Shown here piece after piece: positions 4,482 through 25,464 of a DNA stretch of 35,702 nt. The notes under the pieces were generated by a model. The model ran no database searches, had not been told where the DNA came from, and worked only from the letters and a program-made list of their open reading frames with translations. Position 1 is the stretch's first letter, and each line of letters starts with the position of its first letter. The DNA comes from Candidatus Micrarchaeota archaeon (GTDB lineage: Archaea > Micrarchaeota > Micrarchaeia > Anstonellales > Bilamarchaeaceae): the NCBI GenBank assembly GCA_040754495.1, contig JBFMCO010000009.1, positions 1-35,702 on the forward strand, given 5' to 3'. A program made the position numbers and the translations under genes.

Positions 4482-5957
4482 TTACCGGCTCCCTGCCATG
4501 CGCCTCAGCGCGGCCCTTGTAGAGGCACCGAGCAGTTTTTTTCCGGGGATGCGCCTGCCTGGCCAAATGGCCGTGCCGTCCATGTATCCGGGCACATCCG
4601 TTGAGAAGTAGGACAGGATTGTCGGCGCTACGTCCATCACCGAGCGCTCCTGGATTTCGCCCTGCGCCCTGAATCCGTCCCCCCATGCGATGAAAACGCC
4701 GCTCTTGCGGTGGGTGCCGTCCTTCTCCTTCCCGGGCTTGATGGGGCTGGAGATGCCGCTTGCGAGGGTGGTCGAGAGAAGGACGTCGTCCTCGGGTATC
4801 ACGAGCAGCGCCGGAGCCTTCCCGGTTTCAGGGCCGAAATAGATGTCCTCCCTCCGATAAACCTCCCTGACCATGGGCCTGCCTTCCCAGTCCTTCGCGC
4901 AAAGAATCGCCTGCCGGACTTCTTCCGCGCGGGCCGCGTCTTCGAGGGCAACCCCGCCGTCGTTGGAAAAAAGGAACGCGGCACTCCCCTTGAGGTCTAT
5001 GCGCTCGCAGACGTCAGCCCCGGGGAGAAGCATGATGCCGGCGTTGACCGCCTTCCCGACCTTTTTCAGGAGCGGCATGGCAGGGGCTAGCGGCGACAGG
5101 AGGGATGCGGCGCGCCTGCCAAGCAGGTGTGGCCGCTCCCTCAGGAGCCCGCGCCCGCGCAGCAGCGAATTCAGGTAAAGCTTGCGCCGCGCGGGAGCGA
5201 ATCCGTGGTCCGACACGACCATGACGTCGCAGCCCATGGCCAGCGCCTCCCCGAGGAAGCGGTCCGCGGCGGCGTACGCCTTGGCGATTTCAGTGCCTTC
5301 CTTCCGCGCCGCGGCCATGAACTCGTGCATGAAGAAATGCTGCAGCCAGTCGGTTGCCGAGAATACGACGACCGCAAGCTCCCAGTCCCTGCCCTTCATC
5401 AGGTGCAGGGCCGCCTTCGCCTTCATGTCCATGTTCCGGAGAAGCGCGGCCGAAAGCGCGGCGCGGTCTTTTATGTCCGCGCCCTTGAGCAGCTTCCCGA
5501 GCCCGGCCGGCCATGCCTCGAAATCCGGCACCGCCCTCCGGATATCCGCTTCGGCCCCGGCAGGGCTGCAGAAGCCTTTTCCGGGGGACGGGAAGCCGGA
5601 GACGACGACCGCGTTCGGGCATGGGCGCGGGGGATAGGAGCATGGGACGTTGAATGCGATTGCCTTATGGCTGCGGAGGAGCTCCCAGACGTATGGCATC
5701 CGGTTGCCCCCGCTAAGGGCAGTGCGGCCGCCCGAGTATTTCACGAAATCGAAAACGCCGTGCTTGCCCGGGTTCACGCCGGTGAACATGCTCGTCCAGG
5801 CCGGGGGCGTGAGCGCAGGCAGGGTGGAGCGCAGGGCCGCCACGGTCCCTGAGCCGCTGATGCGCCGGAAATTGGGAAGCGCCCCGGATTCGATGAGAGG
5901 GCGGAGGATGCTCCAGTCGGCGCCGTCGAGCCCGAGCACCACCAGTCTGGCTGCCAT
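4482..5957 (-). CDS. AlkP-superfamily protein (nucleotide pyrophosphatase/phosphodiesterase-like, COG3379 type), paralog 1
   Basis: VLGLDGADW, STLPALTPPAWTSMFTG (Thr nucleophile), TDWLQH, SDHG and THRKSG motifs. Start placed at ATG 5957, 24 nt from the TATA box. Confidence 0.88.
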   Translation of the reverse strand: MAARLVVLGLDGADWSILRPLIESGALPNFRRISGSGTVAALRSTLPALTPPAWTSMFTGVNPGKHGVFDFVKYSGGRTALSGGNRMPYVWELLRSHKAIAFNVPCSYPPRPCPNAVVVSGFPSPGKGFCSPAGAEADIRRAVPDFEAWPAGLGKLLKGADIKDRAALSAALLRNMDMKAKAALHLMKGRDWELAVVVFSATDWLQHFFMHEFMAAARKEGTEIAKAYAAADRFLGEALAMGCDVMVVSDHGFAPARRKLYLNSLLRGRGLLRERPHLLGRRAASLLSPLAPAMPLLKKVGKAVNAGIMLLPGADVCERIDLKGSAAFLFSNDGGVALEDAARAEEVRQAILCAKDWEGRPMVREVYRREDIYFGPETGKAPALLVIPEDDVLLSTTLASGISSPIKPGKEKDGTHRKSGVFIAWGDGFRAQGEIQERSVMDVAPTILSYFSTDVPGYMDGTAIWPGRRIPGKKLLGASTRAALRRMAGSR

Positions 5958-5980
5958 AGGCCTGTTCCATCCAAGAAACA

Positions 5981-5987
5981 TTTTAAA
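5981..5987. promoter_or_regulatory. Near-palindromic TATA box shared by divergent genes
   Basis: TTTTAAA lies 24 nt from ATG 5957 (-) and 23 nt from ATG 6010 (+). Confidence 0.6.
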
Positions 5988-6009
5988 CCAGCCCTCCTCA
6001 GGTTATGTG

Positions 6010-7236
6010 ATGAGGGACGGCTGGAAAACGGAGGGGCCCGCGCTGGACGAGCTGGTCCTCGGGACGAAAGACGGGCGGAAGGGGAAGAGGGCGCTCGCAA
6101 TCGTCATCACTTCGTTCCAGGCGCGCGAGAGCCTCGCGGAGCACCTTAGGCGCCTTTCCCGCCAGAGCAGGAAGGATTTCGACATAATCGCGGTTTACGG
6201 CGAAAAGGACGAGTTCCTGGAAACGCCGGGATGGGCCGGGGTTCTCCATGTGCGCGAGAAAGGCAGGATGGGCTGCGCAGGGGCGAATTACATCGGGCAG
6301 AAGATAGCCCTGCAGGAGGGGTATGAAAGCGTAATCCTCGCGGACGACGACTGCATGCCGGTTTCGGACGACCTCGTGGAGAAGCTCGCAGGCTCGCCTG
6401 GCGACTGCGCGATGCCCAACGCCGGATACGGGAGGCAGGAGGCGGTTCCCGGATTCATCATCCACCACTACGGCATCCTGCGGCGCGGGGTGCTTGAGAA
6501 GGCCGGCCTCACGTACCTCCCTTTCGGAAACGGCGGGGAGGACCTTGAGCTAATCGACCGCATCAGGAAGGCAGGGATGAATTTCTCGCAGGCCGATGCC
6601 CGGGTTTCGCATCCTGCGCCCGCGCCGATGATGCTCGAGGGCGGGGGGCGTCTTTTCCATTATCAGCGGGGCCTCCTGCTGTACCGGCTCATATGCCGGA
6701 TGCGCGTTTCCGCGCTGAGGTACATCGCCTACAGCCTTCTTTCAGGCCTGCTCATGGCATGCGCCGGGGACCGCGGACGCGGGGTGCTGGTTTTCCGCGC
6801 GCTCTGGGCCGGAAGCGGGATGAGGATGTTCAGGGAGGAGGTCAGCGGCCCGGAGAAGGCTTCGCCCCTGCCGGCAGAGGATGGATATGAGAGGGTGGAG
6901 CCGGAAGGAGGGGATGCGGTTGCAGCCATCCGGATGCTGCCTTCGCTGCCAGGGCTTTTCGGAAAGCGGATTCTCCTTTGCAGGACTTCCAGGCCGCACG
7001 CGGTGCGGGACCTGGCGCCCCTTCTCATGGCCCGGGGCTCCGCAATCGAGCATGACGGGAAGGCATACGCTTTCGGAAAGGAGCGTGGCCTGGCGCACAT
7101 TGCGGCCGGCATCATCCTCGCGCTCTTTCTGGTGCCCCTCATCCTGCCTGCCGCGCTCATGCTGTGGGCCCGCGGAATCGTCTGCAGGGAGCTTTCCGGG
7201 ATAGACACGGCAGGATATGGCGTCCGCGGCCGCTAG
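6010..7236 (+). CDS. GT2-family glycosyltransferase with C-terminal membrane segments, paralog A
   Basis: AIVITSF, GCAGANYIG, ILADDDC and GGEDLE motifs. The true start is at 6010; the ORF-track extension to 5650 overlaps the opposite-strand gene. Confidence 0.8.
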   Translation: MRDGWKTEGPALDELVLGTKDGRKGKRALAIVITSFQARESLAEHLRRLSRQSRKDFDIIAVYGEKDEFLETPGWAGVLHVREKGRMGCAGANYIGQKIALQEGYESVILADDDCMPVSDDLVEKLAGSPGDCAMPNAGYGRQEAVPGFIIHHYGILRRGVLEKAGLTYLPFGNGGEDLELIDRIRKAGMNFSQADARVSHPAPAPMMLEGGGRLFHYQRGLLLYRLICRMRVSALRYIAYSLLSGLLMACAGDRGRGVLVFRALWAGSGMRMFREEVSGPEKASPLPAEDGYERVEPEGGDAVAAIRMLPSLPGLFGKRILLCRTSRPHAVRDLAPLLMARGSAIEHDGKAYAFGKERGLAHIAAGIILALFLVPLILPAALMLWARGIVCRELSGIDTAGYGVRGR

Positions 7237-8498
7237 CCGGGTTTTGCGACCTTGGACACCACGGTCCTGAGCTTGCCTTCAGTCTTCTGCAGGCGCGGGG
7301 GCTCCTCGAACTCGACGCTCACGCGCTCGCCGAGGCAGGCGCCGAGTATGCGCTTCCTCACCTCGCGGCGCGATTCCTCAGGGAACCCTGAAGGCGCCGG
7401 GACGAGCCTGAAGACGAAATGGTCCGGGCGCTCCTGGACGAGCTGGTAGGCGAGCAGGCCCGGGATGCCGTCCATTATGTCGAAAGAGACAGGGGAGCGC
7501 TCCCGCCCGGAAGGAAGGACTATGAAATCGTTGTCGCGCCCCTCGAGGGATTTCAGGACCGGCAGGCTCCGCCCGCAAGGGCAGTCATTGCCCCAGCTCC
7601 CGCGGTCGCCGATGCGGTATCTCAGCAGGGGCATGGCCTGGTTGGATAGCGAGGTGACGAGGATGTCGCCGCTGCCGCTTTTTTTCGGCCTCCCCCGTGC
7701 ATCCGCAATCTCAAGCAGGCACGATGGCGCGCACACGTGCAGCCTCTTCTCTTCAGGGCACTCGAAAGCCAGCGTGCCGAATTCCACGCACCCGTATTGC
7801 TGGAACACCCTGCCGGAAAACGACTCCTCAAGAAGCCTCCTGCGGCCCGCGCTAAGCGTTTCGGCCCCGCAGAAGACGGATTTGAGGCGCAGGCGCGGCC
7901 CGGAGGCCAGATTGAGGCGGGCGAGCACTGCGAGCGTGGAAGGGTACCATCCGAGGATATCGGGCCTCCCGCGCCGAAGCAGCTCCAGGTTGCGTGACTC
8001 GTCCTCGAAAACCGAGAGCGGGAGCTTCCTGAAAAGCCCGAAGGCAGGAAGGAGAGGGAGCGTGTGGCACGGCCTGACCGAAATCTCCGCGAAAAGGTCG
8101 AAGGGCGTGCGCCCGAACTCGGTCTGCACAAGCCCGAGCGTTGCGGTCCTCTGGTCCGCAGCGTCCTGGTCGAGGCAGAGGCGCAGGGGCGTGCCCGTCG
8201 AGCCGGACGTGCTTATTGGATAAAGTTTCCTCCCGGAATCCGGTGCCATGAACGACTGCATGCCGCCCTGCACCTGCCCCTTCAGGGTGGGCGGCAGAAG
8301 CGAGATGTCGGATTCCAGCTCCTCCGGCGTGATGGAGAGCCCGTCCATGAGCCGGCCGTAGTACGGAGTCGAGAGAGCGCGGCGCACGATTGCCCCGAGG
8401 CGCCGGCGCTGGAGGCGCACGAGCGAGTCCCGGCCCGCCCACTGCGCGTTGCGCAACTCAAGGAAGCGCCCGAGGACGCCGAGCATTCGGGCATGCAT
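7233..8498 (-). CDS. CapK/PaaK-like adenylate-forming (ANL superfamily) ligase, paralog 1
   Basis: STSGSTGTP P-loop, QYGCVEFG, PLLRYRIGD, GRDND and C-terminal KLRTVVS. Confidence 0.88.
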   Translation of the reverse strand: MHARMLGVLGRFLELRNAQWAGRDSLVRLQRRRLGAIVRRALSTPYYGRLMDGLSITPEELESDISLLPPTLKGQVQGGMQSFMAPDSGRKLYPISTSGSTGTPLRLCLDQDAADQRTATLGLVQTEFGRTPFDLFAEISVRPCHTLPLLPAFGLFRKLPLSVFEDESRNLELLRRGRPDILGWYPSTLAVLARLNLASGPRLRLKSVFCGAETLSAGRRRLLEESFSGRVFQQYGCVEFGTLAFECPEEKRLHVCAPSCLLEIADARGRPKKSGSGDILVTSLSNQAMPLLRYRIGDRGSWGNDCPCGRSLPVLKSLEGRDNDFIVLPSGRERSPVSFDIMDGIPGLLAYQLVQERPDHFVFRLVPAPSGFPEESRREVRKRILGACLGERVSVEFEEPPRLQKTEGKLRTVVSKVAKPG

Positions 8499-8517
8499 GA
8501 ATTGATTTCGATGCATG

Positions 8518-8525
8518 TTTTAAAA
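8518..8525. promoter_or_regulatory. Palindromic TATA box shared by divergent genes
   Basis: TTTTAAAA lies 20 nt from ATG 8498 (-) and 25 nt from ATG 8550 (+). Confidence 0.6.
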
Positions 8526-8549
8526 AAACGGAAGCAAAGAGTGGATGTG

Positions 8550-9851
8550 ATGAAAAAACGGCCCGATGCCGCGCCAGCGCTGGATGCGCTCGTTGCAGAG
8601 CGCAAGGACATGAGGAGGGCACCCCGCGCAAAGGCCGCGCTGGTGATAACCACGTACGGCAACGCCCCCATGCTGAAGGGGCATATCGAGAGGCTCGGCC
8701 TCCAGAAATGGAAGGGCTTCGACATCATCATCGTCTATGGGGAGAAGGACGGCTTCATCGAGGCGCCTGCGTGGGCGGGCATCCTGCACCTGCGCGAGAA
8801 GGGAAGGAATGGCTGCTCGGGGGCGTATTACATCGGGGAGCGGGCCGCCCTTGAGGAAGGCTACGGGATAATCATCCTCGCGGACGACGACTGCATGCCC
8901 GTGTCAGTTGACCTCGTCGAATCGCTGGTGAAGGAGGTGGAGGGCGGCTCGCAAATCGCCATCCCGCGCCTCGGCTCCCCGCAGGCGTCATGGAAGCCCC
9001 GCGTGCCCCATTATTACGGGGCTCTGAGCGCCAAAGCGCTGAGGTCGGCAGGGCTTACGTTCCTGCCGCTCTTCTTCGGGGGGGACGACGTGGAGTTCAT
9101 GAGCAGGATGAGGAATTCCGGGTTTTCCCCGAAGCACATAGAAGCGTACGCGTGGCATCCGCCGGCAAAGCCATTCCTCATCGACGCGTCGTGGAAAAGG
9201 TACTACTATTCCCGGGGGGAGCTGGAGGCGCTCGTCCTGAACCGCGGATTCCCGGAGGCATTTGCCTTCGCCGCGATGGGCCTGTTCATGGCTGCCTCCC
9301 TTGCGGCTTTCGGAAGGATGGGCCAGGCCGGAAGGACGCTGCATGGCCTGTGGGACGGCTCGCGGCTCGTGTTTTTCGAAGCGAAGAATGCGGGCGGCAA
9401 CGGCCCGCAGGCCCTTGCTAAGGAGCCGGAGGCGGACCTCGTGTTCGATTCCAGGGAGGCAGCCGGCAGGCGGGTGCAGGGCCCGAACATGATGCTTTAT
9501 TCTGACGATGCCGGGCAGGGCCTGCTGTGGTATGCCGGAAGGTGCGCGTCCATCCTCGCGTCGTTTCCGAAATACCTTGGCAAGCGCATCCTGTTCCGCG
9601 GAGGAAACAGCGCGCTCAGCCTTCCTGCCATCGCGATGGCCCGCAGCGCTTACATGGTGCACGAAGGGAAGGCGTACGAGGTTTTCAGCGGGCGGGGCAT
9701 GATACGGATAGTCGCGGGGCTCGCCCTGCTCGCGTTCGCCGCTCCTTTCGTGCTTCCGCTTGCGCTCTGCCTCTCCCTGGGGGGATTCGCCGTGCGTGCC
9801 TGGAAAGGGGTAACGAGCTCGGGCTACGGCCTTGAGACTCGGAAGGATTAA
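8550..9851 (+). CDS. GT2-family glycosyltransferase with C-terminal membrane segments, paralog B
   Basis: ALVITTY, GCSGAYYIG, ILADDDC and GGDDVE motifs. Colinear with 6010..7236. Confidence 0.8.
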   Translation: MKKRPDAAPALDALVAERKDMRRAPRAKAALVITTYGNAPMLKGHIERLGLQKWKGFDIIIVYGEKDGFIEAPAWAGILHLREKGRNGCSGAYYIGERAALEEGYGIIILADDDCMPVSVDLVESLVKEVEGGSQIAIPRLGSPQASWKPRVPHYYGALSAKALRSAGLTFLPLFFGGDDVEFMSRMRNSGFSPKHIEAYAWHPPAKPFLIDASWKRYYYSRGELEALVLNRGFPEAFAFAAMGLFMAASLAAFGRMGQAGRTLHGLWDGSRLVFFEAKNAGGNGPQALAKEPEADLVFDSREAAGRRVQGPNMMLYSDDAGQGLLWYAGRCASILASFPKYLGKRILFRGGNSALSLPAIAMARSAYMVHEGKAYEVFSGRGMIRIVAGLALLAFAAPFVLPLALCLSLGGFAVRAWKGVTSSGYGLETRKD

Positions 9852-9876
9852 AAGAGCGGAAAGGGAAGCATAAGCG

Positions 9877-10578
9877 ATGGCGGAAGGAAAAGTGTCCGTG
9901 ATTCTCCCGGTGCACAACGAGGGCAGGACCCTCGAGGGCAACGTGAAGCGGCTGATAGGCACGCTGGACGGATGCCTCGGCGACTACGAGATACTCATCA
10001 GCGAGGACGGCAGCACGGACGGGAGCACCGGGGTCGCGAAATCGCTCCGCTCGGCGCGCGTGAGGACGTTCCACAACGACAATCGGGTGGGCAAGGGCGC
10101 CGCGATAAAGAGCGCCGCAGCCCGCGCGCGCGGCAACATCATAATTTTCATGGACGCTGACCTCGCCTCGGAGCCGGCCCACGTGAAGGAGCTTGTCGGC
10201 TTCATACGCGACGGCGCGGCAATCGTCATAGGCTCGCGCTACCTGCCCGGAGCGAAGGCGAGCAGGAGCATGGTGCGGTATGTCGCGAGCAGGGCTTTCA
10301 ACATGCTTGTCAGCCTTCTTCTGGGCTCAAGGCTCAGCGACCACCAGTGCGGGTTCAAGGCTTTCAGGAAGGACCTCGTGCTCCCGGTCGTGAACGAGGT
10401 CGAGGACGAATGGTGGTTCTGGGACACCGAGCTTCTCGTGCGCGCCCAGCGCAGGGGCCTGCGCATAAGCGAAATCCCGATTCATTGGAAAGAGGTCTCA
10501 GGCTCCAGGTTCAGGCTCTTCCATGACAGCCTCAAGATGGCGTCCTGCCTCCTGAAGTTCAAGCTGAGGCACGGCTAG
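9877..10578 (+). CDS. Dolichyl/polyprenyl-phosphate glycosyltransferase (DPM1/ALG5-like GT2)
   Basis: VILPVHNE, EDGSTDGS, GKGAAI, FMDAD, SDHQCGFKAF and WFWDTELL motifs. Confidence 0.9.
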   Translation: MAEGKVSVILPVHNEGRTLEGNVKRLIGTLDGCLGDYEILISEDGSTDGSTGVAKSLRSARVRTFHNDNRVGKGAAIKSAAARARGNIIIFMDADLASEPAHVKELVGFIRDGAAIVIGSRYLPGAKASRSMVRYVASRAFNMLVSLLLGSRLSDHQCGFKAFRKDLVLPVVNEVEDEWWFWDTELLVRAQRRGLRISEIPIHWKEVSGSRFRLFHDSLKMASCLLKFKLRHG

Positions 10579-12215
10579 CGGCTTTCACGGCCGACGCCGT
10601 ACGATGCCATCCTGCAGAGGGCCTCCGCGGCAGGATTGGGGACGCGGGCCTTCTTCAGCACTTTCGCGAGCATGGCGACATCCTCGCGCCCGATGCATTT
10701 GAGGAGCAGGCAGAAGCAGGCGAAAAACGCGATTGCGGCTGCGCTCATGAGGCCGATGAAAGCGGCATAGAGGATTTTCGGCACGTAGAAGGGCGCGTCC
10801 GGTCCGGCTGCGCCCTGGATGCCTGCCGAGAGCGAGCTGATGATGGGGCCTGATAAGAACATTATGGCGAGCGTCGCCAGGCCGGCAAGCGCCAGCTTGA
10901 AGACTTCCGCCGGAAGGCGGTATCCGAAATGCTTCCTGGCGTAGTATGCGAGAAGCGTTGCGTTGGCCGCGAATCCCATGAGCGAGGAGATTGCCGAGCC
11001 CGCGATGCCGAGCACCGGGATGAGGAGGATATTCAGCACGATGTTGAGCAGGCCCGCGGCGACCGTGATTTCTATCTGGAGCCGGACGAGGCGCATGGCC
11101 GAGAGCGTGAGCGACAGGACGTATGAGACCGCCTTGAGCAGGATGCCGAGCGCGAGAATCGACATGACGATGCCGCCCGCCCGGTACTGCTCGCCATAAA
11201 GCGCGGCGAGTATGTCGCCCGAAAAGGCCATCATGACAAGGCCGAATGGCACGGTCATGAGGAGGGACCAGCGCTGTGCGGTCTCGGTCGCCGCGCCTAT
11301 CTGCAGCGTGTCGTTCTTCCCGTAAAGCCGGGATATCATCGGCAGGAATATGCCCCCTATGGAGTTCGGAATCGTCAGCAGGACGCCTGCCAATGACGCA
11401 GCGACCGCATAGACCGCGACGGCTTCGGTCGCCTCTGATGGGTCGAGGAGGAAGCCGAGCAGCACCCTGCTTGTCGAGAAGAAAAGCGCGCCGAGCGACG
11501 AGAGGAAGCCGAACATGAGGCCGAACGGGATGATTTCCCCGGTCAGCTGGGCCGCGCTTATGCCGCTGCCCGCAGGGAGCCCTTCCGCTCTTTTCCGCAC
11601 GAATACGAGCGAGAGCAGGATGGCCGGGACGAAGGAGAGCAGGAGGGCCGCGCCGACCGCGTTCGCGGATGGGCCGAACGTCATTATGAGCAGGGGGGCA
11701 AGGACGAGCTTCAGGAGGTTCTGGAGGTTCTGCGAAAGCTGCATGGAGCGTATGTCGGCCCTGGCCCGTATGAACGAAGTCGTAACGGCGAATATGTTCG
11801 TGAGCAGGAGGGAGAGGGACAGCATGCGGACCATGTCCGGAAGGCGCGGGTTCTGGTAGAGCGCCCCGATATTGTCCGCCTGCCACCAGAGAAGCAGGAC
11901 GAGCACCGCGGCGGAGGCGATTGTAAGGATGACGCTTACCCGCAGGAGCTCGCGGATTTTCCCTTTTTCGTTGCGGCCCTCGAAGAACGGGACGTAGCGC
12001 ACGAGCGCGCTCGCCATGCCGAGGTTGTCTATGACGGAGGGGAGCGAGACGATGCCCATCGCGAGGAAGAAAAGGCCGAGCTCGTCCTGCGGGACAAGGC
12101 GCGCGACGATGATGGTGTAGAAGAACGAGAACGAGTAGAAGAACGCGCTGCCGAGGAGGCCCCACATGCTCCCTTTCGCGACCTCCTTGGAGGATTCAGC
12201 TGGCTCGTCCTGCAT
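10575..12215 (-). CDS. Oligosaccharide/polysaccharide flippase (Wzx/MOP family)
   Basis: About 14 TM. Motifs include ELGLFFLA, NLGMASALVRYV, VAVYAVA, IFLPMISRLY and LNILLIPVLGIAGSAIS. SD GGTGA lies 4 nt before the ATG. Confidence 0.92.
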   Translation of the reverse strand: MQDEPAESSKEVAKGSMWGLLGSAFFYSFSFFYTIIVARLVPQDELGLFFLAMGIVSLPSVIDNLGMASALVRYVPFFEGRNEKGKIRELLRVSVILTIASAAVLVLLLWWQADNIGALYQNPRLPDMVRMLSLSLLLTNIFAVTTSFIRARADIRSMQLSQNLQNLLKLVLAPLLIMTFGPSANAVGAALLLSFVPAILLSLVFVRKRAEGLPAGSGISAAQLTGEIIPFGLMFGFLSSLGALFFSTSRVLLGFLLDPSEATEAVAVYAVAASLAGVLLTIPNSIGGIFLPMISRLYGKNDTLQIGAATETAQRWSLLMTVPFGLVMMAFSGDILAALYGEQYRAGGIVMSILALGILLKAVSYVLSLTLSAMRLVRLQIEITVAAGLLNIVLNILLIPVLGIAGSAISSLMGFAANATLLAYYARKHFGYRLPAEVFKLALAGLATLAIMFLSGPIISSLSAGIQGAAGPDAPFYVPKILYAAFIGLMSAAAIAFFACFCLLLKCIGREDVAMLAKVLKKARVPNPAAEALCRMASYGVGRESR

Positions 12216-12219
12216 CCCC

Positions 12220-13737: not shown

Positions 13738-13763
13738 ATCGGCAACAAATGGGGTTCATTCTA

Positions 13764-13770
13764 TTTTTAA
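13764..13770. promoter_or_regulatory. TATA-like box between divergent AlkP paralog 2 and cysD
   Basis: TTTTTAA is the main AT tract in the 66-nt divergent spacer. Confidence 0.45.
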
Positions 13771-13803
13771 GTGTATCCGGGGTAAATCCTTCCAGGTGGT
13801 TGA

Positions 13804-14592: not shown

Positions 14593-14596
14593 ATCT

Positions 14597-16602: not shown

Positions 16603-16627
16603 ACGTTACGCAGCACTGTTTATTCAC

Positions 16628-17812: not shown

Positions 17813-18003
17813 ACGTGGATATTCCGGCAGGATTGTACAAGAAACTAGAGGAGAGGATAAAGGGCAGCGAGTTTTCCAGTGTCTCGGACTACGTTGCATT
17901 CGTGCTCACCGAGCTGCTTGCGGCCGAGGAGGCTTCAGGCGGGAGTTCCGAGGACGAGGGCAAGGTCAAGGAAAGGCTCAGGTCTTTGGGCTACCTCGAC
18001 TGA
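17809..18003 (+). CDS. Small ribbon-helix-helix (CopG-like) protein with C-terminal ERLRSLGYLD tail
   Basis: ATGA overlap with the upstream stop. VDIPAGLYKKLEERI...FSSVSDYVAFVL fits an RHH pattern. Confidence 0.8.
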   Translation: MNVDIPAGLYKKLEERIKGSEFSSVSDYVAFVLTELLAAEEASGGSSEDEGKVKERLRSLGYLD

Positions 18004-19253
18004 AGGTCGATTGAGGGCTTCAGGGAGGAGACTACGGATTGCAGCTTGCCGCTCCTGCCCCTCGGAATTGATTCGACCAGCTCCACCTTGATGTCCAGTT
18101 TTTCCGGGAAGAAGGCGTTCAGGTCGTCGGAGAGCTTCTTGCGGTCCTTTCCGTCTATTTTCCCGTCCTCGGTGACTATGAGGATTTTCAGCTCGCCCTC
18201 GTTGTCCTGCCTCGCCTGGAAGAGCACGGCGCCCGGGATGTCGCGGATGAAGACACCCACGAACCGCCCGGAGATGGGCCTTCCGCTCGGAAGCACGATG
18301 AAATCGTCGTCTCTTCCCTCTATGGGCTTGAGCGTCTGCAGGCCTCTTTTGCACGCGCACTTTTCACCTATTGCCGTGCGGTCGCCGAGCGAGTAGCGGA
18401 GCAGCGGCATCGCCCTCTGCCAGAGCGGGGTTACGACAATGTTGCCGTATTCGCCGTCTTTCACGGGCCTGCCCTGCTCATCCACGATTTCCGCAATCAC
18501 ATGGTCCGAATGCAGGTGCATCGAGCCTTTTTCGCACTGCCACGCGAGCCAGGACGTCTCCATCGAGCCGTACATGTCATAGACCTTCGCCCCGAACGAC
18601 GCTTCGAGGAACGCCCTTGCCTTCGGCGTGAGAAGCTCCGCATACGAGAAGAGCTTTTCTATCTTCAATGCGCCGTCCCCCTGGTTCGCGTGCGCCATCG
18701 GGAGCGCGTACGAGGGATGGCAGATGAGCGCCTTCGGCTTCATCTCCTTCAGCTTCTTGAGGTTGGCTTTTTCATCGTCATGCATGGAAAGGTAATGCCT
18801 CCTGAAGATACCGAGGTTTTGCAGGAGGCGCGGCTTTCCGTTATGGTAGATGATGTGCACTACCTTGTCGAAAGGCCCGATGCCCGCTTCCGTGAGCTGG
18901 CGCATCTCGAATGCCGGGCCGTAGGCCGATTCCCCTGCGCTGTGATAGATGTCGAGCGGAGTGCCTGTGGAGCCGGATGTGGACATCTTCTTGAGCGAGC
19001 TTTCCCTGTATGCGCTGCTGATGAGGGAAAGGGTGTTCGAGCGGATGTCCTGCTTGCGGAGGATTGGTAGAGCAGGGAGGTCGTCGAGGGAACGGACCGT
19101 TCTCCCCTCGAATTTCTTCCTGTAATACGGGACCTTGTTTTTCGCGTACTCGAAAAGCTCCCTGAGCTTCTTTTCCTGGGTTGCCCTCAGCTCTTCCGGG
19201 CTTTTCCACTGGTCGGAGCGCATCTGCGCGAGCAAAGAGGCTATGTGCATCAT
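17991..19253 (-). CDS. CapK/PaaK-like adenylate-forming ligase, paralog 2
   Basis: STSGSTGTP, MYGSMET, PLLRYSLGD, GRDDD and KLQSVVS motifs. The start at 19253 forms an ATGA overlap with the upstream stop. Confidence 0.88.
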   Translation of the reverse strand: MMHIASLLAQMRSDQWKSPEELRATQEKKLRELFEYAKNKVPYYRKKFEGRTVRSLDDLPALPILRKQDIRSNTLSLISSAYRESSLKKMSTSGSTGTPLDIYHSAGESAYGPAFEMRQLTEAGIGPFDKVVHIIYHNGKPRLLQNLGIFRRHYLSMHDDEKANLKKLKEMKPKALICHPSYALPMAHANQGDGALKIEKLFSYAELLTPKARAFLEASFGAKVYDMYGSMETSWLAWQCEKGSMHLHSDHVIAEIVDEQGRPVKDGEYGNIVVTPLWQRAMPLLRYSLGDRTAIGEKCACKRGLQTLKPIEGRDDDFIVLPSGRPISGRFVGVFIRDIPGAVLFQARQDNEGELKILIVTEDGKIDGKDRKKLSDDLNAFFPEKLDIKVELVESIPRGRSGKLQSVVSSLKPSIDLQSR

Positions 19254-20500
19254 TTTCGCACCTTCGAGACGACCGTGCTGATTTTTCCGGTCCTTCCCTT
19301 TTCTATGGAATTTGCCTCCTCGAACTCCACCGTAATTCTCTCCCCGAGGCAGCCCCTTTTGATTCTTTTTGCGATTTCCTTCCTGGCTTTTTCGTCGAAG
19401 CCCTTTGCAGGCACGTACCTGAACACGAAAATGCCTTCCTTTTCCTGCACAATCTGGTAGCTTTTTACCTCCCGGATGTCGTCCAGAAGGTTGATGGAGC
19501 GCGCGGAGCGCTTTTTCCCGCTCGGCAATGTGATTAGGTCGTCCTCCCTGCCTTCCAGCCTGCCCAGGACGGGCAATCCCCGGCCGCAGCCGCATTTTCC
19601 CCATTCCGCCAGGTCGCCGACGGCATAGCGCAGGAGCGGCATCGCCGAATTGAACAGGCCGGTGATTACCAGGCGGCCGAGGCCATTTGTCGGCCTGCCC
19701 TGGCTATCCACGATTTCGGCAAGGCAGTTCGGGTGGACGTGCAAGGAGTGGTTTTTGCATTCGAACGCAATCGTGCCGAATTCAACAGAGCCGTACTGGT
19801 TGAAGACCGGGCAATCGAATGATTCGCCAATGAGCCTGCGCCTTTCCTTTGTAAGCATCTCGGCCCCGCAGAAGACGGATTTCAGATTTACAGGGTTTCC
19901 GGCCTCTTCGTTCAGCCTTGCCATCATGCCGACGATTGAGGGGTACCAGCCGAGGATGTCCGGCTTCGCCTTTTGGAGGAGCGCGAAGTTCTTTTCCTCG
20001 TCCTCGAAAACAGAGAGGTGCATTTTTCGGAAGATGCCAAGCGAGGCAAGATGGGGCAGTGAGCTGTATTCAGCGTCGGATATTTCAGCAAACAAGTCGA
20101 AGGGCGAGCGGCCGAACTCCGTCTGCGCGAAGGCCAGGCCCGCGGCCCTAGCGGAGAGCGCGTTTTTGTCGAAATAGACGTCGATTGGCACCCCGGAGGA
20201 GCCGGACGTGCTGGCCTTGTGGAGAGAGGCGGTTTTCGTGAGAAAATCCTGGGGAGCGGAGCGGATGTCGTCCTTGGTAGTTATGGGTATTTCGGAGAGG
20301 ATTGGGGAGGGGGATGATATGGAATGGGGTTTTGAGGTCGCAAGGGTTATGCGTTTTGAGTAGAATTTAGTTTTCTTCGCGGCCTCGATGATTCTGGCCA
20401 GCTTTTTCCCCTGAAGCTCCTGGAGCCCCGCAGGGCTCAGCCACTGCTCCCTCCTGAAAGTGAGGACGTCGCTGAGCATCTTCAGGAAAGAGGGACGCAT
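19250..20500 (-). CDS. CapK/PaaK-like adenylate-forming ligase, paralog 3
   Basis: STSGSSGVP, QYGSVEFG, PLLRYAVGD, GREDD and KISTVVS motifs. TATA-like TTAAAAAA lies about 22 nt upstream of ATG 20500. Confidence 0.88.
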   Translation of the reverse strand: MRPSFLKMLSDVLTFRREQWLSPAGLQELQGKKLARIIEAAKKTKFYSKRITLATSKPHSISSPSPILSEIPITTKDDIRSAPQDFLTKTASLHKASTSGSSGVPIDVYFDKNALSARAAGLAFAQTEFGRSPFDLFAEISDAEYSSLPHLASLGIFRKMHLSVFEDEEKNFALLQKAKPDILGWYPSIVGMMARLNEEAGNPVNLKSVFCGAEMLTKERRRLIGESFDCPVFNQYGSVEFGTIAFECKNHSLHVHPNCLAEIVDSQGRPTNGLGRLVITGLFNSAMPLLRYAVGDLAEWGKCGCGRGLPVLGRLEGREDDLITLPSGKKRSARSINLLDDIREVKSYQIVQEKEGIFVFRYVPAKGFDEKARKEIAKRIKRGCLGERITVEFEEANSIEKGRTGKISTVVSKVRK

Positions 20501-20558
20501 GGGGAAGAATTGGGTTTTATCTTTTTTAATGGGGATGGATGACGGGCCTGGCCGGGCA

Positions 20559-21848
20559 TCATAAGAGGGTGCCGTCTCCGAAGCCCGTCCCGGCACGGCC
20601 TCTCACCTTGGATATCACCGAGGTAAGCTTGCCGGTTCCGGTGCGGGGGATGCGCTGCATCTTCTCGAACTCGAGCTTCACCTCTTCGCCGAGGCACCCG
20701 CGCCTTACCATCGACACGACTTCGCCGGCATCGCGCTTCCCGATTTCTTTTTCCGAAGGAACGTACCTGAAAACGAAGAGGTCTTCCTTTTCCTGGACGA
20801 GCTGGTAGGATATCAGGCTTTCGGGGTTTTTGAGGAAGTCGAAAGAGAATGAGGAGCGCACCCTGCCGCTCGGCAGGACGATGAAATCCTCCGTCCTGCC
20901 CTTGAGCGACTTCAGGACAGGCAGGCCCCGCCCGCAGGGGCAGTCGGCGCCCCAGCTTCCCAGGTCCCCGAGGGGATAGCGCAGCAGCGGCATGGCGGCG
21001 TTCTGGAGGCCGGTCACGACAATCATGCCTTGCCCGCTTTTTTTCGCCCTTCCCCGCGAATCCAGGATTTCCACGATGGAGCCCGGGTTGACATGCAGCC
21101 TGTGCTCCTCGGGGCATTCCCTCGCAATCACGCCGAATTCGGTCGAGGCATAGAGCTCGAAGACGGATGAGCCGAAGGATTCCTCAATCAGGCTCCGGCA
21201 GCGGCGCGTGAGCATCTCGGCGCCGCAGAACAGCGCCTTAGGCCGGAGCGGCCTGCCCTGCGATGAATTCATCCTCGCCAGGATGGCCAGGACCGAAGGC
21301 ATCCATCCTATGATGTCCGGCCTCGCGCGGCGCAGGATGGAGAACACCTTCTTCTCATCTTCGAAGACAGATATGTGGAGCTTCCTGAAAATCCCGAGCG
21401 GGGATAGGACGAACGGCGGCGGGGTCATGTGCGAGATTTCTGCATAGAGGTCGAAGGGGCCCCTTCCGAATTCCAGCTGCGCGAGCAGGAACGAGGCAGC
21501 CCAGCAGTCCATGGCCTTTTCGTCGAAAAAAATGCTTGCCGGCACGCCCGTGGAGCCGGATGTTTCCTGCCTGATGAGGCGGGCATGGTCGGTCCCTTCC
21601 GCGATGAACGAGGCCGGATTGCCGCGCACGGCCTCTTTTCCGGTCAGGGGGAGCAGGGCGAGGTCGCGGCCGACTTCTTCTGCGGTAAGGCCGAGTTTCG
21701 CCAAAAGGCTCCTGTAATACGGGGCCTTCGACGCCGCGGCAACGGCCGGCTCCAGGCGTTTCGCCAGGATATCGTTGAGGCTTTCCCGGTCAAGCCACTG
21801 CTCCCTTCTGCATCGCAGGGAAAGCTCCAGCCTCCTCAGCATCCCCAT
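20559..21848 (-). CDS. CapK/PaaK-like adenylate-forming ligase, paralog 4
   Basis: ETSGSTGVP, LYASTEFG, PLLRYPLGD, GRTED and KLTSVIS motifs. TTATAAA lies 24 nt upstream of ATG 21848. Confidence 0.88.
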   Translation of the reverse strand: MGMLRRLELSLRCRREQWLDRESLNDILAKRLEPAVAAASKAPYYRSLLAKLGLTAEEVGRDLALLPLTGKEAVRGNPASFIAEGTDHARLIRQETSGSTGVPASIFFDEKAMDCWAASFLLAQLEFGRGPFDLYAEISHMTPPPFVLSPLGIFRKLHISVFEDEKKVFSILRRARPDIIGWMPSVLAILARMNSSQGRPLRPKALFCGAEMLTRRCRSLIEESFGSSVFELYASTEFGVIARECPEEHRLHVNPGSIVEILDSRGRAKKSGQGMIVVTGLQNAAMPLLRYPLGDLGSWGADCPCGRGLPVLKSLKGRTEDFIVLPSGRVRSSFSFDFLKNPESLISYQLVQEKEDLFVFRYVPSEKEIGKRDAGEVVSMVRRGCLGEEVKLEFEKMQRIPRTGTGKLTSVISKVRGRAGTGFGDGTLL

Positions 21849-21892
21849 GAAGCGGGTTAGGGCGGGCAATGTTTATAATCCGGGCCGCTCCT

Positions 21893-23239
21893 TCAAAGCT
21901 GCCCTGCAGCCTCGTATGCGACCGAGTCGAACCTTCCGTCGCCGGTAAGCAGGAAAACGACGTTTCTCCTCATTTTCTGATGCTCGGCCGCGGCCGCCTC
22001 CTCCATAGCCGCGAGGATGGCATGCGCGGACTCCGGCGCCGGCAGGAATCCCTCGGACTTCTGGAATTCGAGGCCGGCCTCCAGGACTTCTTTTTGGGCA
22101 AACGCCACCGCCTTCACATGACCGAGCTGATGGAGCATCGAAAGGACCGGGTTCTTTCCGTGGTACCTCAGCCCGCCTGCATGGAGCTTTGGCGGCACGT
22201 TTTCATGTCCCAGGCTGTTCATCAGCAGGAGGGGCATGAGCTCTCCATGGTCCTGGTAGTCCCATTCGTACCTACCCTGCGTCAGGACTGGAATGTTCGC
22301 CGATTCGGCGGCCACGAACACCGGGCCTTTCCTGCCTGCGAGCTTGTCGTCTATGTACGGGGCCACCAGGCCGCAGAAATTGCTCCCGCCCCCGATGCAG
22401 GCGACCAGCACGTCGGGCTCGACCTTCAGCGCGGCAAGCTGCGCAACGACCTCCTGCCCGATTATCGACTGGTGGAGGGCCGCGTAATAGGACATGCACC
22501 CAAGGAGCAGGGCGGTCTCGCCATCGACGGTCGAAACCGCCTCGGACATGCCTATGCCGAGGCTTCCCGGATGGTCCTTGTCCTTGCGCAGCTCGGCCCT
22601 GCCGACCCCGGTTTTTTCGCTGGGCGAGGATACGACTTCCGCCCCGTACTCCTCCATCATCGCGACCCTGCCCTTCTTGTCGCGGTAGCTCTGGGCGGTC
22701 ATGAATATCGTGGAGCGGAGGCCCATCCTCCTTGCGGCTATCGCGACCGCTATGCCCCATTGGCCCGCCCCGGTATCGGTCACGACTTTTTTCCTGCCGT
22801 CCCACTTCGCATAAAGCGCCTGCGCAAGCGACGTGTTGAGCTTGTGGCTGCCGCTAGGGGTGCATGACTCGTCCTTGACATATATGGCGGCGTATTCGAG
22901 GGAGGCCTTTCCAAGCCGCGCCGCGACCGCCTTCTCAAGCCCGGAAGCGCGGTAAAGTGGGGTGGGCCTGTACTTCAGGTACTCGTCGTAGACCTCCCGG
23001 GGAATCTCTATTTCCCTTTCGGTCCGGTAAGGCCCGCTCAGGGTTTCGATTCTTGCCGCTTCCGTGGAGGTCATTTTCGCAAGCGCCTGCTCCGGAAACG
23101 GCTCCACGGCGTTCCCGCTTTCCCTGCCCGGCACGGGAAGCTCGAGCCCGTTCCTGAAGAAATCTGAAAGGAAGTTCCTCCACGTCCTTGGCACGGGCAC
23201 AAGAGGGCCCTTCCGTTCCTCCATCGGATTTTCCACCAC
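21893..23239 (-). CDS. trpB2: TrpB2-like PLP-dependent enzyme (divergent active site)
   Basis: RPTPLYRA, GSHKLNT (PLP Lys codon 22841-22843), TDTGAGQWG, PGSLGI, GGGSNF, HAGGLRYHG and PAPESAHA motifs. Start is GTG 23239 or ATG 23224. Confidence 0.9.
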   Translation of the reverse strand: MVENPMEERKGPLVPVPRTWRNFLSDFFRNGLELPVPGRESGNAVEPFPEQALAKMTSTEAARIETLSGPYRTEREIEIPREVYDEYLKYRPTPLYRASGLEKAVAARLGKASLEYAAIYVKDESCTPSGSHKLNTSLAQALYAKWDGRKKVVTDTGAGQWGIAVAIAARRMGLRSTIFMTAQSYRDKKGRVAMMEEYGAEVVSSPSEKTGVGRAELRKDKDHPGSLGIGMSEAVSTVDGETALLLGCMSYYAALHQSIIGQEVVAQLAALKVEPDVLVACIGGGSNFCGLVAPYIDDKLAGRKGPVFVAAESANIPVLTQGRYEWDYQDHGELMPLLLMNSLGHENVPPKLHAGGLRYHGKNPVLSMLHQLGHVKAVAFAQKEVLEAGLEFQKSEGFLPAPESAHAILAAMEEAAAAEHQKMRRNVVFLLTGDGRFDSVAYEAAGQL

Positions 23240-23268
23240 GTCGAATTTGCCGGAATGGCATTATAAAT

Positions 23269-24492
23269 TCAGCGGACTTTCGATACGACCCTCTCGATTT
23301 TTCCCGTCCTGCCCCTGGGAATCCTCTCTACATGCTCGAACTCCAGCCGTATCTCTTCCCCGAGGCATGCCTTTCTCATGTCGGCCGTTATCTCATCCTT
23401 CGTCCTTTCGGTCAGCTCCGACCCGCAATAGCGCAGCACGAACAGGTCCTCGCGCTCCTGGATAATCTGGTACTGGGTGATTTCGCTGACCGCGGCGTCG
23501 ATATCGAGAATCCCGAGGCTGATCGCCGGGTGCGTTTTTCCGCTCGGCAGCCTGATGAGCACCGGGTTCCTGCCTTCAAAGGAACCGAGAACCGGGTATC
23601 CCCGGCCGCACGGGCAATCCTTCCCCCATGAACCCGTGTCGCCGAGCCCGTACCTGATGAGGGGCATCGTCCGGTTATACAGGGACGTGACCACGATGTT
23701 CCCTTTCCCGTGCTTTTTCGGCCTTCCCTTATGGTCGACGATTTCCACCTTGAGGGTGCTGGAATTCACGTGCATCCTCCCCTCCTCCGGGCATTCCCAT
23801 GCGACCGAGCGGAATTCCCATGCCCCGTAATAATCCAGGACCGGGCAGGAGAACGAGTCCCCGATGAGCTTCCTCGCGCCCGGAGTCAGTGTCTCCCCGC
23901 AGGCGATAATCGACTTCGGCCTGATTTTTTTGTTCATCCTGGCAAGCATGGCCAGGATGGACGGGTATCCCTTTATCATCTCCGGCCTGTTCCTGGCGAT
24001 TTTTTCATATATCGCTTCTTCCGGCTCGCGGGAGTCTATCTTGAGCTTCCTGAAAAGGACGAACGAATGTGGGGCGTAGCTTTCCCTGGAGATATCTGCG
24101 AACAGCCCGAACGGCGACCTTCCCTGGGAGATTTCGTGGAAATGGACTATGGCGATCCGCTGCAAGGATTCGGCCCTGTCCGTGTATATCGTGATGGGGA
24201 TTCCGGTGGTGCCGGATGTCCTGTGGGCGTCCAGGGAGCGCATGTCCGCACCCCTCCGGATGAAAAGGAGCGGGTCGGAGCGAATCCTGTCCTTTTCCAG
24301 CACCGGAAGGAGGGAAAGGTCCCGGGCTGCATCCGCCGCGGGAACAATCCCCAGATGCCTGGAATAGTAACCGGTATCCCCGGCGCAGCGCAGTATGCCT
24401 TCCAGCTTGTTTTTTTGCGCCTCCTCGAGGGAATCCCTGTCCATCCATTCCTCCCTCCGCATGGAGAGAACATGCATGAGGATGGACATCAT
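23269..24492 (-). CDS. CapK/PaaK-like adenylate-forming ligase, paralog 5
   Basis: RTSGTTGIP, YYGAWEFR, PLIRYGLGD, GRNPV (atypical) and KIERVVS motifs. Confidence 0.85.
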   Translation of the reverse strand: MMSILMHVLSMRREEWMDRDSLEEAQKNKLEGILRCAGDTGYYSRHLGIVPAADAARDLSLLPVLEKDRIRSDPLLFIRRGADMRSLDAHRTSGTTGIPITIYTDRAESLQRIAIVHFHEISQGRSPFGLFADISRESYAPHSFVLFRKLKIDSREPEEAIYEKIARNRPEMIKGYPSILAMLARMNKKIRPKSIIACGETLTPGARKLIGDSFSCPVLDYYGAWEFRSVAWECPEEGRMHVNSSTLKVEIVDHKGRPKKHGKGNIVVTSLYNRTMPLIRYGLGDTGSWGKDCPCGRGYPVLGSFEGRNPVLIRLPSGKTHPAISLGILDIDAAVSEITQYQIIQEREDLFVLRYCGSELTERTKDEITADMRKACLGEEIRLEFEHVERIPRGRTGKIERVVSKVR

Positions 24493-24514
24493 GGCAATGC
24501 ATTAGCCGGCAATC

Positions 24515-25132
24515 TTATTTAACCCGCATGAGCCGCTTCGAAAGGCCATGGCGGAAGGAGGACCAGTGGACGAACAGGCCGAACAGCAGCGCTTCGACAG
24601 GAATCCGGTTGAGGGCGCTCGGGCGGAGCTCGACCTCGTAGTATTTGTAGGTCGTGCCGTCGAACGGGAAATACCTGTCATGGGCCGGATAGTACCGCGC
24701 CCCGAATTTCGACTCGAAACCCACGGACTCGGGCGAGGCGTATCCGTAGACCTTGCGGAAGCCCATCTCCTTCACGGTGCGGAGCCTGCTCTCGTTGAGC
24801 AGCCTGCCCACGCTCACCCCGCCCTTTCCGCCCTGGAAGCTGGCCTTGACGTAGATGAGATTGAAATAGCTGCTTTGGAGGAGCCTGTCGAACCTGCCGG
24901 ATGTGAAGCTGGAGAAGCCTGCGAGCTCCCCATCCACCTCCGCGATTATCATTTTCCCGTGAGAAAGGTAAATCTCGAACAGCTCCTCGTCCGGAAGCGA
25001 GAGGACGCGGTCGACGGCTTCGTCGGGGTGGGCGCCGCCGAGGCTTTTCCTCAGCGTGCCGTACGAATCCCTGAACAGCCGGACCACCTGCGTCTCGTCC
25101 CCGGCCCTGGCGTCCCTCAGAAGTATGTTCAT
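24515..25132 (-). CDS. GNAT-family N-acetyltransferase
   Basis: ILLRDARAGD, IIAEVDGELAGF, IYVKASFQGGKG..VGRLL (acetyl-CoA motif A) and GFESKFG. An alternative start is at 25180. Confidence 0.8.
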   Translation of the reverse strand: MNILLRDARAGDETQVVRLFRDSYGTLRKSLGGAHPDEAVDRVLSLPDEELFEIYLSHGKMIIAEVDGELAGFSSFTSGRFDRLLQSSYFNLIYVKASFQGGKGGVSVGRLLNESRLRTVKEMGFRKVYGYASPESVGFESKFGARYYPAHDRYFPFDGTTYKYYEVELRPSALNRIPVEALLFGLFVHWSSFRHGLSKRLMRVK

Positions 25133-25249: not shown

Positions 25250-25464
25250 GGGCCCGTAGCTCAGCCTGGTTGGAGCGTTCGACTGATAGAAACTTTTTTG
25301 GAAAAAGTTTCATCAAAAACTGACTGTTGCAAAACCCTCTCGGGTTTTGGGTGAAAACCATTTTGCCGCAAGGGCAAAATCAGCGAGTCCGTTTTTGATC
25401 AAAACTTTTTTCTAAAAAGTTTTGGGAAATCGAAAGGTCGTGAGTTCAAATCTCGCCGGGCCCA
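25250..25464 (+). tRNA. tRNA-Ile(GAT) with 140-nt intron at 37/38
   Basis: Acceptor GGGCCCG/CGGGCCC, D stem GCTC/GAGC, anticodon stem TTCGA/TCGAA, anticodon GAT at 25285-25287, T loop TTCAAAT. No encoded CCA. Confidence 0.92.
25289..25428 (+). other. Structured tRNA intron with about 33-nt terminal inverted repeats and an internal four-way junction
   Basis: Manual base pairing (see findings). Forms a BHB-like motif with the exons. Confidence 0.85.

Follow-up and report, generated by a model that had tools for sequence, protein, structure and literature searches.

Each of the enzymatic ideas discussed here has a recent genetic precedent. Deletion of the Vibrio cholerae gene for VpsH, a PaaK/CapK-like protein, yields a lipid-linked Vibrio polysaccharide (VPS) disaccharide that lacks the glycine amide on GulNAcA, and the mechanism of VpsH is itself unproven (PMC13463779). 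The Methanococcus N-glycan bears a threonine amide-linked to C6 of mannuronic acid (PMC11407970); this is an archaeal precedent for a uronic acid amide, though that glycan carries one amino acid only. For sulfation, Halobacterium salinarum VNG1056C and VNG1057C, sulfatase-like members of the AlkP superfamily encoded in a glycosylation cluster, are reported to be genetically required for N-glycan sulfation (PMC11980604), and Haloferax volcanii Agl7 is reported to be needed for sulfation of a dolichol-phosphate-linked hexose (PMC3892788). The passages searched in these two papers (PMC11980604, PMC3892788) leave the sulfate donor unaddressed. Here we describe a candidate surface-glycan locus in a DPANN archaeon of the Micrarchaeota (genus Bilamarchaeum type) in which glycosyltransferase (GT) genes are interleaved with genes for sulfate activation, AlkP proteins, a pyruvyl transferase, PaaK-like adenylate-forming ligases (ANLs), a TrpB-like enzyme, and a GNAT. 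The window, meaning the whole stretch that was analyzed, is the entire 35.7-kb contig (C9) of one metagenome-assembled genome (MAG).

That MAG, G000, spans 1.63 Mb, is 80% complete, and has a GC content of about 62%; its lineage is described as having a richer metabolism than most DPANN (PMC8561730). We mapped genes by choosing open reading frames (ORFs) with guidance from third-position GC content (GC3), followed by Pfam and NCBIfam scans. An earlier interpretation made from the letters alone (the sequence-only reading) had listed the gene classes of the locus, and every class that it named was present where it had been placed, the GNAT being recognized by its fold. The most informative new points are that two sulfation toolkits alternate within the genus and that an expansion of the ligases is tied to the proline synthesis genes proBAC. 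Both the ligase copy number and the link to amino acid synthesis genes are unusual. Because DPANN live attached to hosts, their surface chemistry is probably central to their lifestyle.

Recurrence of the locus and its separable modules

We compared the locus across 40 genomes of the genus. A co-occurrence check that the sequence-only reading had called for came out in its favor: the component set recurs at one syntenic site, adjoining the g20 and metallophos genes, in five relatives (G021, G054, G022, G006, and G052), so that with G000 at least six species of the genus have it. In the five relatives, the site contains GT4 and GT2 genes, one or two long AlkP genes, a flippase gene, the CysD-CysN-miniAlkP trio, and one to six ANL genes. 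The pyruvyl transferase is present at the site in G021, G054, G022, and G006 but not in G052. A GNAT gene occurs within the block or close to it in G021, G054, and G052. The GT4 orthologs, which are 53 to 64% identical, are likewise sited in syntenic loci. Since the same set recurs in related species, the clustering of these genes is not due to chance.

The idea that these genes make up a single pathway did not hold up. The sulfation set occurs in G013 and G024, which have no ANLs; in G044 and G014, ANLs occur with the pyruvyl transferase and the flippase but not with CysDN; and G002 has bare GNAT+ANL pairs. Hence, either module, that for sulfation or that of ligases and GNAT, can exist without the other. 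Our preferred reading is that the locus is a mosaic: backbone genes, a CysDN and NPP-fold module for sulfation, a pyruvyl transferase, and a ligase and GNAT module that is specific to the lineage and fed by amino acid genes.

We lean toward a model in which this is a variable surface-glycan locus, for either an N-glycan or an envelope polysaccharide, whose three separable modules act on a polyprenyl-linked oligosaccharide. All tailoring would occur on the cytoplasmic face, prior to Wzx flipping. The GT4 and GT2 enzymes would assemble the oligosaccharide, and a GT2 resembling dolichol-phosphate mannose synthase (DPMS) and ArnC, together with an 817-aa membrane protein, may add an extracellular sugar. 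CysDN would produce adenosine 5'-phosphosulfate (APS), and AlkP3, AlkP1, and AlkP2 would replace the missing APS kinase and P-loop sulfotransferase in placing sulfate on the sugars. The pyruvyl transferase, probably dependent on phosphoenolpyruvate, would install a pyruvate ketal. The PaaK-like ligases would adenylate a sugar carboxylate (that of a uronic acid or of the pyruvate ketal) and link an amino acid to it as an amide, as proposed for VpsH. Amino acids would be supplied by a copy of the proBAC module and possibly by the TrpB-like enzyme, and the GNAT might acetylate an amine on either the substituent or the sugar. What the analysis establishes is the identity of the genes, the integrity of the catalytic motifs, the conservation of synteny, and the alternation of two sulfation modules; from these we infer the substrates, the sulfate donor, and the order of the steps.

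Sulfate activation and the AlkP proteins

CysD and CysN carry the ATP pyrophosphatase domain and the EF-Tu-like GTPase of a CysDN ATP sulfurylase and are encoded by adjacent genes. Searches of G000 (80% complete) for APS kinase, P-loop sulfotransferase, sulfite reductase, and reductive sulfate assimilation genes in general found none. Across the genus, CysD occurs in 11 of the 40 genomes, and a bona fide APS kinase was found in none of these 11; conversely, four genus genomes have a real APS kinase, and a CysD match was found in none of them. In G014, a Sulfotransfer_1 gene is followed by Sat-CysC-ANL-GT2 (L099, G014:C19:1-6347). PF01663 genes were not found in G014, G001, or G017; G000 has three, all within the locus. 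In this distribution, CysDN+AlkP and Sat+CysC+P-loop sulfotransferase behave as alternatives. We regard this alternation as the best evidence here for sulfation by AlkP proteins that is independent of 3'-phosphoadenosine 5'-phosphosulfate (PAPS), perhaps with APS as the direct sulfate donor. Both the CysDN(C)/NodPQ plus NodH-type systems and the Sat-CysC-Sulfotransfer_1 set of G014 resemble the present locus in having dedicated sulfate activation within a glycan-modification locus; the difference is that NPP-fold proteins here occupy the place of the APS kinase and the P-loop sulfotransferase. A toolkit swap of this kind, made in nature, is good comparative evidence for AlkP-fold sulfotransferases, maybe ones that use APS directly.

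All three AlkP proteins match PF01663 with 85 to 120 bits against a gathering cutoff of 23, and Pfam scans reported no sulfatase family for them. AlkP1 and AlkP2 share 40% identity, and AlkP2, aligned to PhnA, keeps the Asp, the Thr nucleophile, and the D..H and DH ligands. AlkP3 had been taken for a fragment. It is instead a complete mini enzyme: its orthologs are 249 to 255 aa long, begin with MIVIGLDG, and have starts that overlap the cysN stop. The residues invariant among them (D7, S45, D154, H158, D195, H196, H220, and H221) comprise all of the metal ligands and the Ser nucleophile. Its AlphaFold2 (AF2) model (pLDDT, 93.7) shows an NPP-like, nucleotide-binding fold, matched best by Xac NPP and ENPP enzymes. 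The start codon is ATG in six orthologs, GTG in G021, and CTG at 15838 here; the CTG is either a noncanonical start or the result of a recent start-codon mutation or assembly variant. A complex prediction from CysD+CysN+AlkP3 alignments scored 0.08 against a mark of 0.32, and we used it neither for nor against an assembly.

The arrangement extends beyond the archaea. In Patescibacteria (candidate phyla radiation [CPR]), mini-AlkPs 31 to 32% identical to AlkP3 are encoded in the order miniAlkP-CysD-CysN-flippase-long AlkP within GT-rich loci, the third of which has an additional TauE-type permease. CysD is 80 to 86% identical within the genus and 55 to 57% identical to the CysD of the CPR loci.

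Perhaps, instead, the AlkP paralogs are phosphodiesterases or phosphotransferases that handle phospho-head groups on the glycan or hydrolyze PPi or APS, with CysDN serving some other sulfur need? Their family is PF01663, the fold of AlkP3 is nearest to nucleotide pyrophosphatases, and NPP chemistry targets phosphorus. Against this, the coupled CysD-CysN-miniAlkP trio has been kept from Micrarchaeota to CPR within glycan loci, reductive assimilation genes are among those not found in G000, and the trio alternates with Sat-CysC-Sulfotransfer_1 inside one genus. We consider a purely phosphorus-directed role improbable. VNG1056C and VNG1057C of Halobacterium share with AlkP1-3 the AlkP superfamily, an archaeal glycan cluster, and the lack of a P-loop sulfotransferase; they are sulfatase-like, however, whereas AlkP1-3 are NPP/PhnA-like (PF01663) and include a 254-aa mini form fixed to CysDN. 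Since one group is sulfatase-like and the other NPP-like, we claim kinship at the superfamily level only. Gene context at this locus points to APS as the donor, unlike the searched passages on the halobacterial and haloferacine proteins, which are silent on the donor. The proposal that the glycan is sulfated thus gains from the toolkit alternation and from the AlkP precedent (PMC11980604), with its donor and chemistry still read from gene content.

CysD orthologs end in an invariant RLRALGYM. A 67-aa ORF downstream of the pyruvyl transferase gene ends in RLRSLGYLD, which resembles this tail, and on that likeness it could possibly encode a regulatory or docking peptide.

PaaK-like ligases, the GNAT, and the TrpB-like enzyme

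A tblastn search of the whole MAG found nine ANLs, eight intact and one truncated. Five lie in the locus; the four further paralogs, along with a second GNAT, lie outside it. Contig C5 has the order GNAT-ProB-ProA-ANL-ProC-ANL-ANL, flanked by genes that encode a squalene/phytoene synthase and eRF1, and a lone ANL is on contig C31. All eight full-length proteins keep the adenylation motifs of the PaaK-like branch (COG1541) of the ANL superfamily: the P-loop (T/S)SG(S/T)(T/S)GxP, the A5 motif YGxxE, the A7 Asp, the A8 motif GRxxD, and the A10 Lys. They also share an invariant CxCGR just upstream of the A8 hinge, possibly a site that responds to metals or to redox state. Among solved structures, they are closest to PaaK-like ligases, NatL2/AjiA1 being among these. 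They are not PaaK equivalogs, scoring 29 to 112 bits, far short of the NCBIfam cutoffs of 646 and 700 (TIGR02155 and NF041878). ANLs are present in 15 of the 40 genus genomes, mostly at 4 to 9 copies each, and in none of the other 25. The subfamily is small: among 64 matches at an E value of ≤1e-40, those named by source were all Micrarchaeota or Bilamarchaeum.

Two of these genes call for separate comment. The third ANL on C5 (L006, G000:C5, 10441-11436) stops after about 290 residues of the N domain, with a TAG flagged in the match; it is either a pseudogene or an assembly error. ANL2 had been described as a 537-aa protein, and this we rejected. The first 116 codons of that ORF (19256-19604, rich in R, G, K, and P) are an out-of-frame shadow of the ANL3 C terminus, leaving a protein of about 421 aa. 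The resulting 354-nt ANL2/ANL3 overlap at first seemed conserved elsewhere, but the matching segments are interrupted by stops and turn up wherever the C-terminal part of an ANL is encoded. The tblastn conservation of the extension is spurious, since the extension runs, in a different frame, across the sequence for the conserved C-terminal domain of an ANL. Elsewhere in the genus, G052 has eight tandem ANLs (L077, G052:C2:456000-475999) interrupted by two gaps of 1.0 to 1.4 kb.

In a quick maximum-likelihood tree, the ANLs split into two deep clades, and subgroups keep their context: adjacent to the pyruvyl transferase, intercalated with ProA/ProC, or adjacent to the TrpB-like gene. Interleaving of proBAC with ANLs is found in G000, G022, G050, G051, G006, G017, and G021. 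Eight genomes have both ProB and ANLs; the genes are adjacent in seven and about 6 kb apart in the eighth, G054. Five ANL-free genomes have ProB. The pyruvyl transferase, which matches PF04230 across the full domain with 127.9 bits against a cutoff of 25.3, is a clear member of the CsaB/WcaK family and differs from known members in its constant adjacency to the ligase block, which it adjoins in seven genomes. Seven genomes have the ligases beside GT, flippase, and pyruvyl transferase genes, and seven have them beside proBAC; both kinds of adjacency are in keeping with ligases that join locally supplied amino acids to sugar carboxylates. From the constant pyruvyl transferase pairing comes the idea that the ketal carboxylate itself might be amidated. 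Because a gene for a UDP-sugar dehydrogenase (uronic-acid-forming) is present on contig C53, beside a second flippase locus, the genome can also make uronic acids.

By context, the ligases are most like VpsH, a soluble PaaK-like enzyme whose glycan locus depends on Wzx and also encodes GTs and an acetyltransferase. The systems differ in that VPS has one copy, whereas here there are five in the locus and nine in the genome, in two deep clades, paired with a lineage-specific GNAT, proBAC, and TrpB-like genes. The claim of amide-linked amino acids thus drew support from the proBAC adjacency (at least seven genomes) and from VpsH, its chemistry being deduced from genes. A burst of ligases with a private GNAT and with proline and TrpB-like genes suggests heavier decoration of a glycan with amino acids than in any studied case, and these natural paralogs should be useful for work on substrate specificity in the VpsH/CapK enzyme class.

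The GNAT gave no match in a Pfam scan and weak profile matches to GNATs in the PDB. Its assignment was upheld at the level of fold: the AF2 model (pLDDT, 84.6) matches many GNATs with a Foldseek probability of 1.0 and has an extra C-terminal helix. The acyl-CoA loop, Q-x-G-K-x-G, is near but not identical to the canonical Q/RxxGxG/A. Acetyl decoration of the glycan is accordingly a suggestion from the modeled fold. In the genomes compared, the GNAT always adjoins ANL genes. The family occurs in about 16 genus genomes (three draws). Beyond the genus, 401 genomes sampled from the phylum gave three weak matches, in the same family; about 27 clusters had an E value of ≤1e-30 among 1.84 billion representative proteins, and a locus search with a four-sequence GNAT alignment returned six loci, all from Micrarchaeota. 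One 515-aa protein (P0242) has this same GNAT domain at residues 1 to 192 followed by a 320-aa extension. We had considered it a GNAT-ligase fusion and rejected this, as the extension matched no family.

We wondered if the ligase, GNAT, and amino acid genes might belong to a pathway of their own, one that makes a small molecule, soluble or bound to lipid, and merely has the glycan locus as a neighbor. Candidate products are an acyl-amino acid, an N-acetylated amino acid, and a short peptide made by the ligases. An amino acid, for instance proline or whatever the TrpB-like enzyme makes, would be acetylated by the GNAT, and the N-acyl amino acids so formed would then be adenylated and condensed by the PaaK-like enzymes. 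The GNAT-ProB-ProA-ANL-ProC-ANL run on C5 has no GT or flippase neighbors, and the GNAT+ANL pairs of G002 stand alone. The nearest structures to the GNAT include phosphinothricin, ArsN, and YncA-type N-acetyltransferases of free amino acids, and the solved ligase relatives NatL2 and AjiA1 are PaaK-like enzymes that condense small molecules without CoA. Around the eight tandem ANLs of G052, the query set used detected no glycan genes. However, seven genomes have the ANL block directly beside the pyruvyl transferase and flippase or GT genes, ANL1 sits between two GT genes, and an ANL of G014 sits between CysC and GT2. The module comes without a transporter or carrier protein, and the VpsH precedent acts on a glycan. 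We judge a small-molecule product to be unlikely, if far from negligible.

The invariant A10 Lys and the constant pairing of GNAT and ANL genes would also be expected if the GNAT were an AcuA/Pat-like protein acetyltransferase that switches the ANLs off through this lysine, the ANLs being ordinary acyl-CoA ligases; AcuA, moreover, is similar in size to the ~205-aa GNAT. Yet there is no deacetylase partner nearby, the Pfam scan gave no AcuA-family match, the NCBIfam PaaK equivalog scores are far under the cutoffs, and the contexts are those of glycan and amino acid synthesis, not catabolism. We find this explanation very hard to credit.

A bolder version of the glycan model is that ligases acting in series build a short nonribosomal peptide on a sugar carboxylate, which the GNAT would cap with acetyl and the AlkP proteins would sulfate from APS, giving a sulfated glycopeptide envelope polymer. 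The acceptor could be the pyruvate-ketal carboxylate, making the product an analogue of the MurC-F lactyl-peptide stem, fed by proline and by building blocks derived from the TrpB-like enzyme. If true, this would place enzyme families in jobs for which they were not previously known. We give it little weight.

The TrpB-like protein is 40 to 50% identical to Sulfolobus TrpB2a/2i (PDB 6hul and 6hte), with the same fold, and keeps the catalytic Lys (GSHK) and the GGGSN phosphate loop. In alignment with 6hul and 6hte, Asp (TDTGAGQWG) replaces the indole-activating Glu (TETGAGQWG), and two more active-site segments differ. The sequence-only reading had described a TrpB2 rewired at this locus. The Glu-to-Asp change is real, but it is not local: at least 52 of 56 inspected homologs carry the Asp, most of them with LGCMSYYA as well, and they come from Acidobacteria, Patescibacteria, Elusimicrobia, and others. 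The protein thus belongs to a large and widespread TrpB-like subfamily, and a literature search found no paper on this Asp-variant group.

Is the TrpB-like enzyme a local source of glycan substituents, as had been proposed? It adjoins ANLs only in G000 and G021, the latter with an 83% identical ortholog in the same arrangement; other TrpB2 genes of the genus are 44 to 46% identical and sited elsewhere. Outside the genus, an AsnB-like neighbor appears in four of seven contexts, in bacteria and archaea (L088, L092, and L091). Two 71%-identical relatives have a TrmB regulator and an AsnB gene alongside, one of them also with uvrA, uvrB, and uvrC nearby, and in the window uvrA and uvrC lie about 8 kb from the TrpB-like gene. 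Because uvr genes are near it both in the relative and here, the TrpB-like gene may be an old resident of the neighborhood. These contexts, with the spread of the Asp signature through many phyla, are what one would expect of a general amino acid metabolism gene that is here by inherited gene order and supplies no glycan substituent, and we give that view close to an even chance. On the other side, ANL genes flank it on both sides in both species, and the ANL5 ortholog moves with it. Like ANLs, AsnB-like enzymes use ATP to form amides, which hints at a recurring theme whereby the TrpB-like product would be amidated; the repeated pairing of a TrpB-like enzyme with such an amide former is at most suggestive. 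The pairing of Asp-variant TrpB-like and AsnB-like genes appears to be uncharacterized.

Several considerations weigh against the glycan-tailoring model as a whole. The absences on which the comparisons draw come from incomplete MAGs. Since the modules occur independently, their adjacency may in part reflect a recombination hot spot for surface genes, and the housekeeping flanks of the C5 module make a soluble product possible. Four to nine ligases per genome exceed the need for simple decoration of one repeat unit. NPP-type chemistry on APS, attacking phosphorus, normally means simple hydrolysis, and the archaeal sulfotransferases studied so far are sulfatase-like and related to AlkP1-3 at the superfamily level only. 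Finally, a role for the TrpB-like gene is weakly supported, its link to the ligases holding in two species, with an AsnB-like partner elsewhere and uvr genes near it in related contigs.

Backbone genes and the gene map

The features of the window are collected in Table 1. By hydropathy profile, the 817-aa membrane protein at the locus edge starts with about nine transmembrane (TM) segments, continues into a large domain outside the cytoplasm, and is anchored at its C terminus; a Pfam scan gave it no family. It has homologs in the corresponding edge position in G006, G021, G054, G022, and G024, and it may be a GT-C-type transferase that partners the DPMS-like GT2, whose best solved relatives are ArnC, Pyrococcus DPMS, and GtrB. 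The two GT2-like proteins are paralogs (37% identical by tblastn), and the likeness of the second to the first starts near 8574. The flippase matches Polysacc_synt/MurJ/MatE profiles and has 13 TM-like segments, where 12 or more are expected of a Wzx/MOP protein. AglB is present in the genome.

Table 1. Genes of the locus, with positions in the window and the basis of each assignment
Feature	Position	Strand	Basis or remark
817-aa polytopic membrane protein; candidate GT-C-type glycosyltransferase/polymerase	420..2873	+	Locus edge; hydropathy
GT4 glycosyltransferase	3222..4313	-	PF00534 at 4.7e-37
AlkP1, 499 aa, NPP-type, cytoplasmic; candidate glycan sulfotransferase	4482..5981	-	PF01663 at 4.6e-29; no TM segments
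GT2-like glycosyltransferase, C-terminal TM segment	5998..7236	+	Weak GlfT1 match
ANL1, PaaK-like adenylate-forming ligase	7233..8516	-	Between GT genes; clade B; sub-cutoff NCBIfam PaaK/DVU1553/F390-type matches
Second GT2-like glycosyltransferase	~8520..9851	+	PF00535; start uncertain
Polyprenyl-phosphate sugar synthase-type GT2 ("lipid-carrier GT")	9877..10578	+	PF00535 at 8e-29
Wzx/MOP flippase	10575..12215	-	PF13440, PF01943, MatE, MurJ; 13 TM-like segments
AlkP2, 505 aa, NPP-type; candidate glycan sulfotransferase	12220..13737	-	PF01663 at 2.3e-34
CysD, small subunit of sulfate adenylyltransferase	13804..14592	+	PF01507 at 1.8e-37
CysN, GTPase subunit, 420 aa, without APS kinase domain	14579..15841	+	GTP_EFTU + D2 + C domains
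AlkP3, 254-aa mini NPP-fold enzyme	15838..16602	+	PF01663; translationally coupled to cysN
Polysaccharide pyruvyl transferase, CsaB/WcaK type	16628..17812	+	PF04230 at 9.4e-37; TIGR03609 below cutoff
67-aa acidic small ORF	17800..18003	+	ORF list; between pyruvyl transferase and ANL2
ANL2, ~421 aa	17991..19256	-	Clade A; motifs and tree; adjoins pyruvyl transferase
ANL3	19250..20596	-	Likely start Met33, near 20500
ANL4	20559..21869	-	Solved relatives PaaK-like, including NatL2/AjiA1-type
TrpB-like PLP enzyme, Asp-variant subfamily	21893..23239	-	NF009057, 456 bits vs cutoff of 366
ANL5	23269..24492	-	Ortholog adjoins TrpB-like gene in G021, GNAT in G002
Divergent GNAT-fold protein, 205 aa, C-terminal amphipathic helix	24515..25132	-	AF2 model, Foldseek

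Intron-bearing tRNA-Ile and tRNA-Leu genes had been suggested at 25289-25428 and 27442-27498. ARAGORN found zero tRNAs in the window and so reported neither; the sites may have long or noncanonical introns, or may not be tRNAs. To the right of the locus lie unrelated genes for a metallophosphoesterase, TFB, a DEAD helicase, a DUF4256 protein, UvrC, and UvrA.

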